From the IMG/VR virus record IMGVR_UViG_2684623059_000004: DNA of 37,308 nucleotides; one strand, given 5' to 3'. The translations under genes and the position numbers were made by a program. The notes under the pieces are model-generated. The model made no database searches and was not told the origin of the DNA. It worked only from the letters and a program-made list of their open reading frames with translations. Positions within the stretch are counted from its first letter, which is position 1; each line of letters opens with the position of its first letter. Shown here piece by piece: positions 10,080-23,101 of the stretch. This DNA comes from a virus (lineage: Duplodnaviria; Heunggongvirae; Uroviricota; Caudoviricetes).

Positions 10080-10097
10080 TGTGTCGTTATTCACACA
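10080..10097 (-). promoter_or_regulatory. candidate Ogr-dependent late promoter element upstream of FI
   Basis: exact TGT-N12-ACA dyad (tgtgtcgttattcacaca) about 85 bp upstream of the FI start codon. Confidence 0.45.
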
Positions 10098-10145
10098 AAA
10101 TAACGGTATTTGTCCGCTTACAGGAAAAATCAAAATAATGCTGAC

Positions 10146-10712
10146 TCAGGGCGATTCATTGTTCTCATTCGCCGGAAATTTTCTATAAATGGTAGAAACG
10201 CCCACATCAAAAATCAGTGCAATACGCTGTCTTGATTCTCCGGCCTCGAGTAAACGTCCAATCTGTGCCCACTGTTCGGTAGTCAACTTAGGACGGCGTC
10301 CACCTACTCTGCCTTTGGCGCGAGCTGCAGCCAGCCCTGCCCTGGTACGTTCAACTATCAGTTCGCGTTCCATTTCAGCCAGGGCCCCCATGACATGAAA
10401 AAAGAAACGGCCCATTGGGGTACTGGTATCAATACTGTCAGTCAGGCTTCGGAAATTCACGCCACGCTGGCGCAGATCTTCTATCAGCGTAACGAGATGC
10501 CGCATACTGCGCCCCAACCTGTCCAGCTTCCAGACAACCAGTGTGTCACCTGCCGATAGTGTCCTGAGCAGTTTTTTAAGCCCCGGTCTGTCGGACTTAG
10601 TGCCACTGATTTTGTCCTCAAAAATCCGCTCACATCCCGCGCAGTTCAGTGCATTACGTTGCAAATCGGTGTTCTGGTCATTTGTTGACACGCGTACATA
10701 GCCAATAAGCAT
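10146..10712 (-). CDS. serine DNA invertase (Gin/Cin/Pin/Hin family)
   Basis: N-terminal MLIGYVRVSTNDQ with catalytic serine, C-terminal helix-turn-helix; near-identical in pattern to Cin/Gin as I recall them; start taken at the Met of MLIGY. Confidence 0.85.
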   Translation of the reverse strand: MLIGYVRVSTNDQNTDLQRNALNCAGCERIFEDKISGTKSDRPGLKKLLRTLSAGDTLVVWKLDRLGRSMRHLVTLIEDLRQRGVNFRSLTDSIDTSTPMGRFFFHVMGALAEMERELIVERTRAGLAAARAKGRVGGRRPKLTTEQWAQIGRLLEAGESRQRIALIFDVGVSTIYRKFPANENNESP

Positions 10713-10769
10713 GATCAATCCCCTGAATAAAAACCGGGGATGATGCCAGTTAGTCGTAATCGCTGCATT

Positions 10770-10793
10770 TTCTTAAACGTTGGTTTGGGAGAA
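10770..10793. repeat. invertase crossover site, left
   Basis: TTCTTAAACGTTGGTTTGGGAGAA, imperfect dyad; inner half GGTTTGGGAGAA is the exact reverse complement of the inner half of the right site. Confidence 0.6.
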
Positions 10794-11132
10794 GCGGCCA
10801 AATTGCCTGCGATTAGTGGCTCTTTATCATCATCTGGCTGGATAAAAATCCCTGTTATAGAGGGGAAGTCTTTTATTATCCAATGGGGAAGAATCGGACC
10901 TTCTGATAGTAAAACTGGTGTTGCAACAGGAAGTTATCCTATTGCTTTTCCAAATTCTGCATTTATGGCATTTATTGCTGAAAAAACCGCAGTATCCACA
11001 GGCCCAATAGGTATTAATTCCTGGGGAGTGTCCGAACTAACAAAAACAGAATTAAAGGCCATTTGTGCTGCAAGGACTATATCAACTTCAGCCGCAACTG
11101 AAACAGGTGATTTTCTGGTCCTGGGATATTGA
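10770..11132 (+). CDS. alternative tail-fibre C-terminal segment, currently unexpressed
   Basis: reading frame enters through the crossover site encoding GLGE, in the same codon phase as in H; no independent start needed after inversion. Confidence 0.55.
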   Translation, partial: FLNVGLGEAAKLPAISGSLSSSGWIKIPVIEGKSFIIQWGRIGPSDSKTGVATGSYPIAFPNSAFMAFIAEKTAVSTGPIGINSWGVSELTKTELKAICAARTISTSAATETGDFLVLGY

Positions 11133-11602
11133 GCTTCCATAAGGATTATAAAATGTCGAGCATAATATACTACAGCTCTATAAATAATGCATTTTACCCT
11201 GAGCATTTGAAACAAGAATATATTAAATCTAATTCTTTTCCAGCAGATGCAAAACCCGTTAAATATTCTGTTTTCGAAGAATTTGCACTTAAACCAGCAC
11301 CAGAAGGAAAATACAGGTGCGTTGGTGAAGATGGAATGCCATCATGGGCAGATATTCCACCACCAACACATGAGGAACAGATTGCCGCAGCCGAATTGAA
11401 AAAGCAGCAATTGATTAACCAGGTCAACGAATACATGAACAGTAAACAATGGCCCGGTAAAGCGGCTATTGGTCGTCTGAAAGGTGAGGAACTGGCGCAA
11501 TATAATTTGTGGCTGGATTATCTGGACGCACTGGAACTGGTTGATACCTCCAGTGCTCCAGATATTGAATGGCCTACGCCTCCGGCAGTTCAGGCCAGAT
11601 GA
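11129..11602 (+). CDS. alternative tail-fibre assembly chaperone
   Basis: 157-aa ORF with the same C-terminal signature as G (LDYLDALELVDTSSAPDIEWP versus LDYIDAVTATDTSTAPDVIWP); convergent with G. Confidence 0.65.
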   Translation: MSFHKDYKMSSIIYYSSINNAFYPEHLKQEYIKSNSFPADAKPVKYSVFEEFALKPAPEGKYRCVGEDGMPSWADIPPPTHEEQIAAAELKKQQLINQVNEYMNSKQWPGKAAIGRLKGEELAQYNLWLDYLDALELVDTSSAPDIEWPTPPAVQAR

Positions 11603-21093: not shown

Positions 21094-21096
21094 GGA

Positions 21097-22155
21097 TTAC
21101 GCTCCGGTTTCTGCTGCGGCGGCGCTGAAGTCGCCAATCTGGATGTTTTCCACCAGTGCGGCGCAGCGGTAGTCCTCAACCACATAGGCTTCGTTAACAG
21201 ATTCAAAGTTTTCAATCCGGTCACGTTTCGGGTTGTCAATAACTGAACGGCGGCGGGTGTCTTCCTGCCAGTAGATGGACAGGTTATCCAGACGGGTGAT
21301 CAGCAGCGCATTCGGCGGGAAGAACGGCGCACGCACGGCCTGCAGGCCCCCCATGCGTTTCTGACTGATGATCATATCGGCAGCCAGTTTTTCACTGTTT
21401 TCCTGCTCTTTGTTGACCAGCGGGAAATACTTGTCAGACAGCAGTTCACGCCCGCAAATCACCACCAGATCGTCATCGTCCTGGTAAACCACGTCGATAA
21501 GCTCATTGACGGCATCCATCACTACGGCGTCCAGGTTGGCATATTCGCCACCTTTCCCGACTTTCACCGCACCCGGTGTGGTTTCACCACCCGTGGTGGT
21601 GCTGCCCATGACGTGATCCGGTGCATCCTCACGGATTTTCTGCAGCCAGCCTTTATTCACATCCTGCAGCAGCGGGTTTTCGCTACGGTTGGAGGTTTTC
21701 GCACGCTTCACGCCGTTAAAGCCGATCATGATGCGGTCCAGTGCCTGACGTTTCACGATGGCGTCACGGATACGCACCTGGAAATCCTGAAACTTCGCCC
21801 ACAGGTCCAGCTTCGCGTAGGTCAGTACCGTGTCAAAGTTGGTCTGCTCGCATTTGTATTCAACATCGACCATCAGCGTAGGATCGACAGGTTCACGCTC
21901 TTTCGCGGTGGTGTCAGTGGTTCCGGCAATGGTGCTACCAACACCCAACCCCAGCAGCTGACCGGACTGCTCAGTCACTGGCGTGACGTTAATCAGCGTC
22001 AGGAAAGCGGCGGACTGCTGGATCTGGTCTTCCAGCGTCTGCTGTACAGACGGCTCCACGGTGAACTTGCTGGACAGTTCTTCAACTGCCACACCGTTCA
22101 GACGCGCCAGCTGCTGCAGGTAAGCGTTAAAAGCAAAGCGGGTATTCTTCTTCAT
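21097..22155 (-). CDS. N: major capsid protein
   Basis: 352-aa ORF in the P2 N position and of P2 N size. Confidence 0.85.
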   Translation of the reverse strand: MKKNTRFAFNAYLQQLARLNGVAVEELSSKFTVEPSVQQTLEDQIQQSAAFLTLINVTPVTEQSGQLLGLGVGSTIAGTTDTTAKEREPVDPTLMVDVEYKCEQTNFDTVLTYAKLDLWAKFQDFQVRIRDAIVKRQALDRIMIGFNGVKRAKTSNRSENPLLQDVNKGWLQKIREDAPDHVMGSTTTGGETTPGAVKVGKGGEYANLDAVVMDAVNELIDVVYQDDDDLVVICGRELLSDKYFPLVNKEQENSEKLAADMIISQKRMGGLQAVRAPFFPPNALLITRLDNLSIYWQEDTRRRSVIDNPKRDRIENFESVNEAYVVEDYRCAALVENIQIGDFSAAAAETGA

Positions 22156-22171
22156 CAGGTTTTGTGCTCCA

Positions 22172-23005
22172 TCAGCAATTGGTCAGAGTGTCAGCGGGGG
22201 CGTTACCGCCTGTTGCACGCTGGCGGTAGTCCTGGCGGCTGTCTTCATGACTCAGCTTATTCACCAGTTCTTTAAAGGCGGTTTGCTGCTCCTGCAGAGC
22301 AGTCTCCAGCTCAGACAGGCGTTCTTCCTGTTCAGCCAGGGATTTTTCGGTGCGTGTGCTCAGGTTCTGCTGCTCAGTGGCGACCAGCTCCACGGCCTTA
22401 TGCACATCAGAGAACCGGGCATCGTCTGACTGCTCGTTTTTGGTGAACAGCGCCGTGACGCGGGCAAACAGGGACGGTTTGTCATCCTGGACTTCTTCCA
22501 GTTCGATCACCGTTTCCTCTGCAGCGGTAAAAAGATTGGCGGGATTCTGCTTGCGGTTTGCCAACGGGTTATGGGCTGCACTGGCGCTGAATGTCAGCAT
22601 TTCCGTACCCAGACTGGCTGGATCATCAGTGGCAGCCAGGCCAACCAGGTAGGCTTTGCCCGTATCAGCGAACTTCGGGCTGACTTCCATAGAGGTGAAT
22701 AATTTCTGGCCTTTTTTCACCAGCTCCACCAGGGACTCCGTTGGCTCAACGTCGGCATACAGCGCCATCTTGCCTGCCAGCGGGCCTTCCGTGATTTCTT
22801 CAGCAAACAGCGCCGTCACCTTGCCGTAGCGGTTAAAGGTGCTGTCCGGCAGATAAGACTTGATGTGCTCAAGGTTAATCAGCGCGGTATACACTGCGGA
22901 GTTGTAGCTGGCTGCCATCTGTTCCAGCCATTCACGCTGGATTTCGCGTCCGTCGGTGGTGGCACCTTCCACCCCGATGCGAAAACGCTTTGCTTTCACT
23001 GTCAT
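22172..23005 (-). CDS. O: capsid scaffold protein
   Basis: 277-aa ORF with acidic coiled-coil C-terminus, in the P2 O position. Confidence 0.8.
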   Translation of the reverse strand: MTVKAKRFRIGVEGATTDGREIQREWLEQMAASYNSAVYTALINLEHIKSYLPDSTFNRYGKVTALFAEEITEGPLAGKMALYADVEPTESLVELVKKGQKLFTSMEVSPKFADTGKAYLVGLAATDDPASLGTEMLTFSASAAHNPLANRKQNPANLFTAAEETVIELEEVQDDKPSLFARVTALFTKNEQSDDARFSDVHKAVELVATEQQNLSTRTEKSLAEQEERLSELETALQEQQTAFKELVNKLSHEDSRQDYRQRATGGNAPADTLTNC

Positions 23006-23083
23006 GAGCCGTGCTCCGTTAGAAAAAACTTACTGGAGCCTTATGGTTGCGGTGATGAGGGCAGTGAAACAATGCGCGGTATT

Positions 23084-23101
23084 TGTACCGACAACCACAC
23101 A
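23084..23101 (-). promoter_or_regulatory. candidate Ogr-dependent late promoter element in the O/P divergent intergenic region
   Basis: exact TGT-N12-ACA dyad (tgtaccgacaaccacaca) about 87 bp upstream of the O start codon. Confidence 0.45.

Follow-up and report, generated by a model that had tools for sequence, protein, structure and literature searches.

The window examined here is a whole stretch of 37,308 nucleotides (nt) of viral DNA, IMG/VR record IMGVR_UViG_2684623059_000004. It is a P2-like prophage of the family Peduoviridae, Elveevirus-like in its affinities; its bases 3000-25000 share ~96% DNA identity with P2-like phages and prophages of Klebsiella and Escherichia coli, for example Escherichia phage Cartapus (genus Elveevirus, family Peduoviridae). 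Compared with the P2 map, the late region runs in inverted orientation, colinear with P2, 186, and Cartapus, and the late genes, identified by Pfam and by alignments with P2 and 186, are collected with the other features in Table 1. Exact TGT-N12-ACA dyads occur at 10080-10097 (TGTGTCGTTATTCACACA), 16207-16224 (TGTTTGGCTCGTGATACA), and 23084-23101 (TGTACCGACAACCACACA); these coordinates, and their placement in intergenic regions upstream of late operons, had been given by a first-pass annotation and were reproduced. The FI-side dyad lies in the region 10004-10145, between the stop of an invertase gene (10146) and the FI ATG (10003), 48 nt past that stop. The V-side dyad lies in 16160-16244, between the V ATG and a divergent open reading frame (ORF) with an FRG domain that starts at 16245, and the third dyad occupies the 142 base pairs (bp) between the O and P start codons (23006-23147). 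We consider it highly probable (about 0.9) that the three dyads are the activator sites of the late promoters of this prophage, within an overall mechanism that would include leaderless messenger RNAs (mRNAs) for V and P.

Table 1. Features of the window that are discussed in the text, with predicted promoter elements first.
Feature	Position	Strand	Evidence or remarks
PF activator site (predicted), TTGTGTGAATAACGACACAA on minus strand	10079..10098	-	core 10080-10097, centre 10088.5, upstream of FI-FII-E-T-U-D
PV activator site (predicted), TTGTATCACGAGCCAAACAA on minus strand	16206..16225	-	core 16207-16224, centre 16215.5, upstream of V-W-J-I-H-G
Shared PO/PP activator site (predicted), TTGTACCGACAACCACACAA	23083..23102	.	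core 23084-23101, centre 23092.5, between divergent O and P; positional homolog of the single site annotated in P2 and in 186
PF predicted -10, CAACAT	10045-10040	-	predicted +1 ~10033; ~30-nt leader, GGAGG before FI ATG (10003); same geometry as P2 PF and 186 pJ
PV predicted -10, AACCAT	16172-16167	-	7-nt spacer, V ATG 16159-16157; predicted +1 16160 or 16159
PO predicted -10, AACCAT	23048-23043	-	predicted +1 ~23036; ~31-nt leader, GGAG before O ATG (23005)
PP predicted -10, TAGGTT	23136-23141	+	6-nt spacer, P ATG 23148-23150; predicted +1 ~23148
ogr/B-like late activator, 72 amino acids	2857..3075	-	Pfam Ogr_Delta, E = 6.7e-22, 77.6 bits vs cutoff 26.3
FI	8831-10003	-	Pfam/alignment; ATG at 10003
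V	15581-16159	-	Pfam Phage_base_V; alignment with P2 V and 186 Orf32; ATG at 16159
O	22172-23005	-	Pfam Phage_GPO; ATG at 23005
P (large terminase)	23148-24914	+	Pfam Terminase_5/6N/6C; alignment with P2 P; ATG at 23148
FI-FII-E/E'-T-U-D tail operon, predicted to be served by PF	3166..10003	-	ORFs, Pfam sheath domains, colinear with P2 and Cartapus
V-W-J-I-H-G baseplate and tail-fibre operon, predicted to be served by PV	11574..16159	-	ORFs, Pfam, alignment
O-N-M-L-X-lysis-R-S head and lysis operon, predicted to be served by PO	17195..23005	-	ORFs, Pfam Phage_GPO, colinear with P2 and Cartapus
P-Q (large terminase, portal) operon, predicted to be served by PP	23148..25939	+	ORFs, Pfam, P2 P alignment
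FRG-domain ORF, 311 amino acids, divergent from V	16245-17180	+	PADLOC candidate defence family PDC-S15, 8.5e-32
RybB small RNA gene, full-length	2701-2779	+	106.5 bits
Hin/Gin-type DNA invertase	10146-10718	-	stop at 10146, adjoins tail-fibre copies
Tail-fibre C-terminus copy	10740-11132	+	
Tail-fibre assembly gene copy	11129-11602	+	
Reverse transcriptase, 629 amino acids	25981-27870	-	PADLOC RT-Toprim type I-C retron models, 1.5e-217
DinI/Tum-like protein	28963-29268	-	
CII/CP76	34402-34917	-	
CI repressor (Phage_CI_repr and CI_C domains)	35285-35860	+	

The three dyads are set apart from the other occurrences of the motif by position and by extended sequence. Three of the eight exact matches in the window fall within the 369 bp of the three intergenic regions (P = 5e-5), and a longer form, TTGT-N12-ACAA, is found exactly three times (0.55 expected), each time at one of these sites. 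A weight matrix was built from the sites of relatives, leaving out one promoter class at a time, and the window was searched in four runs. Whichever class was left out, the PF site ranked first (25.5-27.1 bits), the O/P site second (22.0-25.1 bits), and the V site third (14.6-15.9 bits); the next-best match in the window reached 9.0-11.2 bits and the maximum in shuffled windows ~16. The five other exact matches—in host DNA (304, 958), inside T (6775), across the P ATG (23142), and inside the reverse-transcriptase gene (26623)—scored at or below chance in the extended matrix and were rejected as sites.

Conservation carries the argument further. For each of the three genes O, V, and FI, 80 IMG/VR loci supplied the relatives, with counts made on distinct upstream sequences, and all 155 of these have an exact dyad at the corresponding place: 47/47 for O, centered 84.5-88.5 nt from the O ATG; 36/36 for V, centered 54.5-57.5 nt from the A of the V ATG; and 72/72 for FI, centered 78.5-85.5 nt from the FI ATG. 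In none of the 47 O-P regions is the TGT or the ACA altered, whereas the middle of the spacer varies freely (e.g., GTTGTCGG, GTTTACCG, GCGAAAGG, ACGGGCGG). Fixed outer triplets around a free center are the pattern expected for a site read by a symmetric protein, and the symmetrized consensus is TTGT-RYSR-N4-YSRY-ACAA. The V promoter amounts to a natural experiment. The V proteins of these loci are at least 89% identical to that of the window, and the 100 nt upstream of V nonetheless fall into 16 mutually unalignable clusters, owing to the different cargo genes found at that place; every one of the 16 has the exact dyad 54.5-57.5 nt from the ATG, so that these unrelated sequences retain only the dyad, a -10-like hexamer, and the distance to the start codon.

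That hexamer, nAnnnT (with A second and T sixth), has its end at a constant distance from the dyad center at each promoter: 48.5 nt at FI (72/72 distinct sequences), V (about 34/36), and P (38/38), and 49.5 nt at O (46/47, as AACCAT or AAACAT). Applying the usual 7-nt distance from hexamer to +1 puts the predicted starts of all four promoters 55.5-56.5 nt from the dyad center (P 55.5, O 56.5), matching the mapped geometry of P2. A sigma-70 consensus scan of 9900-23300 returned no two-hexamer promoter at the four positions on the correct strand, as is expected for activator-dependent promoters, and no recognizable -35 element at any of the four; Rfam and tRNA scans gave nothing bearing on the late-promoter dyads. 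For genome annotation, the count of bare TGT-N12-ACA is uninformative, and TTGT-N12-ACAA together with a -10-like hexamer 48.5 nt from its center is a specific detector.

The window also encodes a candidate for the protein that would read these sites. Its late activator homolog contains a zinc finger of the form CX2CX22CX4C in which all four cysteines (C4, C7, C30, C35) are conserved, and its gene follows D at the end of the prophage, which is also where P2 and 186 carry theirs. We found no solved structure for the Ogr/Delta activator family; Ogr mutations are known to suppress rpoA109 (L290H) in the alpha C-terminal domain (PMC11434276). Taken together, the position of the dyads, their extended consensus and conservation, the fixed hexamer distance, the absence of a -35 element, and the Ogr_Delta gene support the proposal of the first-pass annotation that the dyads are Ogr/Delta/B-type activator sites of P2-family late promoters. 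As a separate observation, the Ogr homolog of the window is only 63% identical to that of Cartapus (22568-22786), despite the ~96% DNA identity of the neighboring late region; exchange of the activator gene thus seems to be independent of the promoters that its product would act on.

In the mechanism that we propose, the 72-residue Ogr/B-type zinc-finger protein (2857-3075, minus strand) would bind each symmetric site, the center of which lies 55.5-56.5 bp upstream of a promoter with a weak -10 (nAnnnT) and no -35, and by analogy with P2 Ogr would recruit RNA polymerase via the alpha C-terminal domain. One site would drive FI-D and one V-G; the third, midway between divergent starts, would drive both O-S on the minus strand and P-Q on the plus strand. 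Transcription of V would start on the A of its ATG (16159) or one nucleotide earlier (16160), and that of P on the A of its own ATG (23148), with these first cistrons translated as leaderless mRNAs; the FI and O transcripts would carry ~30-nt leaders with Shine-Dalgarno sequences. We infer the binding, the activator dependence, the exact starts, the alpha-subunit contact, and the leaderless translation from sequence comparison. The dyads are ordinary biology for this phage family, and the predicted leaderless terminase mRNA is the only point that goes beyond textbook P2.

The V site had been described as unusually close to the V start codon. It is indeed close, but for this family the spacing is not unusual: the distance from the dyad center to the A of the V ATG is 56.5 nt in the window, as in P2 and 186, and 55.5 nt in 32 of 36 relatives. 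Reading the distinct relatives by eye showed, in most of them, six or seven nucleotides between the hexamer and the ATG, and no Shine-Dalgarno sequence precedes the V ATG in the window. The V mRNA is thus predicted to be leaderless, and the closeness of the site would reflect a conserved leaderless-V architecture homologous to the P2 case, P2 being one of the few known cases of leaderless genes in E. coli that PMC4633059 cites. The sequence features of such mRNAs—a -10 element 6-7 nt before the ATG, no Shine-Dalgarno sequence, and conserved spacing—are found both at V (AACCAT-N7-ATG) and at P (TAGGTT-N6-ATG, 38/38). In this arrangement of the -10 without a Shine-Dalgarno sequence, both resemble the leaderless mRNAs known from mobile elements in E. 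coli (lambda cI, P2 gene V, and Tn1721 tetR). Of the two, V is the homolog of a known case, and for P a leaderless mRNA is predicted from the geometry.

At P, the first-pass annotation had noted that an equally clean dyad was missing. This is borne out, as no second dyad with one mismatch or fewer was found in the 142-bp O-P region (including 23040-23080); but none is to be expected, since the family shares one symmetric site between both divergent promoters. The O-P intergenic region measures 142 bp in the window versus 173 bp in P2 and 165 bp in 186, and the whole difference lies on the P side. P2 has TAGCCT-TGCCGT-G(+1), followed by a 23-nt leader with GAGG and then the ATG; the window has TAGGTT-TGTGCC-ATG. 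The P protein aligns from Met1 with P2 P and 186 Orf12, and a conserved DPRRQA motif precedes the next Met, from which it follows that the ATG at 23148 is likely the real start. In 38/38 distinct variants the A of the P ATG lies 55.5 nt from the dyad center; substitutions are many but indels absent, and TAGGTT, TATGTT, or TAGGCT stands exactly 6 nt before the ATG in all 38, again without a Shine-Dalgarno sequence. Among the relatives, indels are tolerated in the O-side leader, downstream of the O hexamer. This difference between an invariant spacing and an indel-tolerant leader argues for a leaderless P-Q transcript: the terminase mRNA of the window probably begins with its own start codon, the P ATG taking the position of P2's P start.

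A like geometry (TAGCCT or TATGTT, 6 nt, ATG, with the dyad center 55.5-56.5 nt away where an N12 dyad is present) was found in five other phages, from as many further Peduoviridae genera, namely SEN8 (Felsduovirus), ST512-KPC3phi13.6 (Gegevirus), vB_YenM_31.17 (Graikaemvirus), SEN4 (Senquatrovirus), and Burkholderia KS5, the last with an N13 dyad. P88 has a P leader with a Shine-Dalgarno sequence, as do P2 and 186. IMG/VR was also scanned for TAGCCT, 0-30 nt, ATG, and then DPRRQ codons, and the gap from TAGCCT to the ATG proved bimodal: 6-7 nt in at least 19 distinct sequences and 26-30 nt in at least 51, with no gap of 8-25 nt among the matches listed. We lean, with slightly more belief than doubt, toward the wider statement that the P operon has an Ogr-type promoter with its start at the A of the P ATG both here and in these five phages, a statement drawn from their shared spacing. 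If it is true, leaderless cistrons stand first in two of the four late operons (V and P), and the 23-nt Shine-Dalgarno leader of P2 and 186 is one of two discrete architectures, not the rule. The few natural leaderless mRNAs listed for enterobacteria would be joined by that of a conserved essential gene, and the statement would further suggest that low-efficiency initiation independent of a Shine-Dalgarno sequence sets the dose of terminase and baseplate spike. A literature search, far from exhaustive, returned no report of a leaderless terminase in P2-like phages.

One of the rejected exact matches overlaps this region. The P start codon lies within the match at 23142-23159 (TGTGCCATGAACACCACA), whose left half is similar to a half-site, TTGTGCCA, that is common in FI sites. 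It scores 4.7-8.8 bits, is present in about half of the distinct relatives, and has TGT changed to TGG in many (the TGGGCC variants); it is probably a by-product of coding and -10-to-ATG sequence.

The site details for P2 and 186 come from GenBank annotations (NC_001895, NC_001317) and secondary citations. In the RefSeq record of P2, the shared O/P site, TGG-N12-ACA, has its center at 3071.5, exactly 55.5 nt from each of the mapped starts, 3016 and 3127. At V, the site TGT-N12-CAA is centered 56.5 nt from 10308, which is the annotated V start and also the first base of the V coding sequence, and the F site, TGT-N12-CCA, is centered 56.5-58.5 nt from the F start. The late system of the window resembles that of P2 (PF, PV, PO, and PP with Ogr) in that four late operons are served from three intergenic regions, with one shared PO/PP site. 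The dyads of P2 are centered 55.5-58.5 nt from mapped starts and its V start falls on the A of the V ATG; in both phages a variable cargo gene stands next to the V site (the orf30 position) and ogr follows D. The two differ in that the sites of P2 have one mismatch each (TGG...ACA, TGT...CAA, TGT...CCA), whereas those of the window are perfect and more symmetric. The P leader of P2 with its GAGG is absent in the window, and the activator is 51% identical to Ogr.

In 186, one annotated B site serves the divergent pV and p12, the pJ B site is centered 57.5 nt from the mapped start, and the ATG of the V homolog (Orf32) lies 56.5 nt from a TGT-containing half-dyad. Phage 186 (late promoters pJ, p32, and pV/p12, with B) shares with the window the single site for divergent promoters, the 56.5 nt to the ATG of V or its homolog, and the type of immunity region. 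The two differ in that the dyads of 186 are imperfect (TGG...ACA, TGT...CCA), its P homolog has a leader, and its activator is 54% identical to that of the window. A looser likeness is to class I activator-dependent promoters, such as those with CRP at -61.5, which combine a symmetric upstream site, a weak core promoter, and the alpha C-terminal domain. The late promoters may resemble these in all three respects, with activation through the alpha C-terminal domain, but the protein fold is different (a C4 zinc finger here), the site is TGT-N12-ACA rather than TGTGA-N6-TCACA, and it is centered at -55.5; the comparison is one of analogy, not membership. On the four late promoters of P2, PMC3931495, which cites Christie and Calendar (1985), gives TGT-N12-ACA as their consensus; it also reports that PP' and PO' share one site in Smp131. 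For P2-like phages of Ralstonia, related motifs are reported 50-90 nt from start codons (PMC5694545).

Several observations weigh against our interpretation. The bare motif, with eight matches in the window versus 9.39 +/- 3.1 in shuffles, is not enriched: the genome-wide count proposed in the first-pass annotation finds it at chance frequency, although the three sites are still set apart, and the refuting condition stated there thus speaks half against the dyads. The V site is the weakest of the three, about at the shuffle maximum by sequence alone and poor in its right half. The O/P and FI relatives are phylogenetically close (one and three alignable clusters, respectively), and their counts are not independent. 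DNA specificity may differ between activators: the matrix of this clade, applied to P2, places the O/P site at rank 2, PF at rank 4, and PV outside the top eight, and applied to 186 it places pJ at rank 2 and pV/p12 at rank 5, a partial recovery explained by the imperfect dyads of those phages. Leaderless translation is reported to be inefficient in E. coli (PMC4633059), and that an essential terminase should rely on a leaderless start is not self-evident. More generally, all functional statements about the late promoters of this prophage are comparative. It is conceivable, on the strength of the unremarkable count, of the five other exact matches without evident role, and of the V score, that the dyads are chance matches in intergenic DNA to a pattern of low information with only six fixed bases. 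We give this a negligible probability, however, given the clustering of the matches, their identity with the only TTGT-N12-ACAA occurrences in the window, their ranks of one to three, and above all the conservation in 155/155 sequences, including 16 versions of the V upstream region; the conservation data effectively refute it.

It is also very improbable that the dyads are bound by a host global regulator such as CRP, or that they act as RNA or DNA hairpins, whether as terminators or as recombination boundaries of a cargo hotspot. The CRP consensus is TGTGA-N6-TCACA, and the inner part of the FI site, TGTGA-ATAACG-ACACA, matches it at 9 of 10 positions; but this inner register is not kept in relatives (e.g., TTGTGCCATTTTCCATACAA), whereas the N12 register always is, and the reading of the FI site as a CRP box was rejected. 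A role as a boundary would suit the V site, which abuts a hypervariable cargo locus, but the predicted hairpin stabilities are within the range of shuffles (z = -0.85 to -1.95) and the sites have no T-runs, so that the hairpin or terminator reading was likewise set aside. That a -10-like hexamer and the start codons lie at set distances from the dyads speaks for a promoter element over both. One live rival remains, and it concerns P only: P might have a degenerate activator site of its own and a leadered transcript, or a start in the O-proximal half of the region, with the dyad at 23084 serving only O. The 23-nt leaders with GAGG in the P transcripts of P2 and 186, the lack of a visible second dyad, the weakness of leaderless translation in E. 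coli, and a weak AGG 8 nt before the P ATG of the window would all be compatible with this. We nevertheless judge it unlikely. The 142 bp hold no second dyad even at one mismatch, P2 and 186 themselves use one shared site, and the AGG is lost in the TATGTT variants. The 55.5 nt from dyad to ATG in 38 variants, with TAnnnT 6 nt before the ATG, which is the position of the P2 start relative to TAGCCT, favor instead a shared site and a P transcript that begins at its start codon. For a Klebsiella/E. coli prophage lineage that is uncharacterized, the analysis adds to the annotation four late promoters, their predicted starts, and their putative activator.

In 186, the best match to the clade matrix is a perfect dyad, TTGTATGGGATTACACACAA (16.6 bits), at 29575-29594 between tum and orf97. 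No B site is annotated there, the match lies ~20 nt from the orf97 ATG, and it could be due to chance.

Other features of the window touch on the setting of the late region. The FRG-domain ORF stands at the position of P2 orf30, 21 nt from the V dyad, and among the relatives many unrelated inserts are found beside V, each with its own version of the V promoter; this position looks like a hypervariable cargo hotspot, here occupied by a candidate defense gene. For immunity and induction the window has a module like that of 186 and not that of P2, with CI, CII, Apl-like, and Tum/DinI-like proteins encoded in the window, which suggests SOS induction through an antirepressor. The reverse-transcriptase gene sits between Q and the replication genes, corresponding to the old/tin position of P2; Rfam gave no match at the gathering threshold for this locus, with no search aimed at msr/msd RNA made. 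The rybB gene is flanked on one side by a host gene for a YbjL-like permease (936-2621) and on the other by the prophage, whose ogr end is at 2857, and the prophage is probably integrated at or beside rybB. Lastly, between the G gene and the FI promoter lies an invertible host-range segment, 10146-11602, comprising the invertase gene and the tail-fibre copies.

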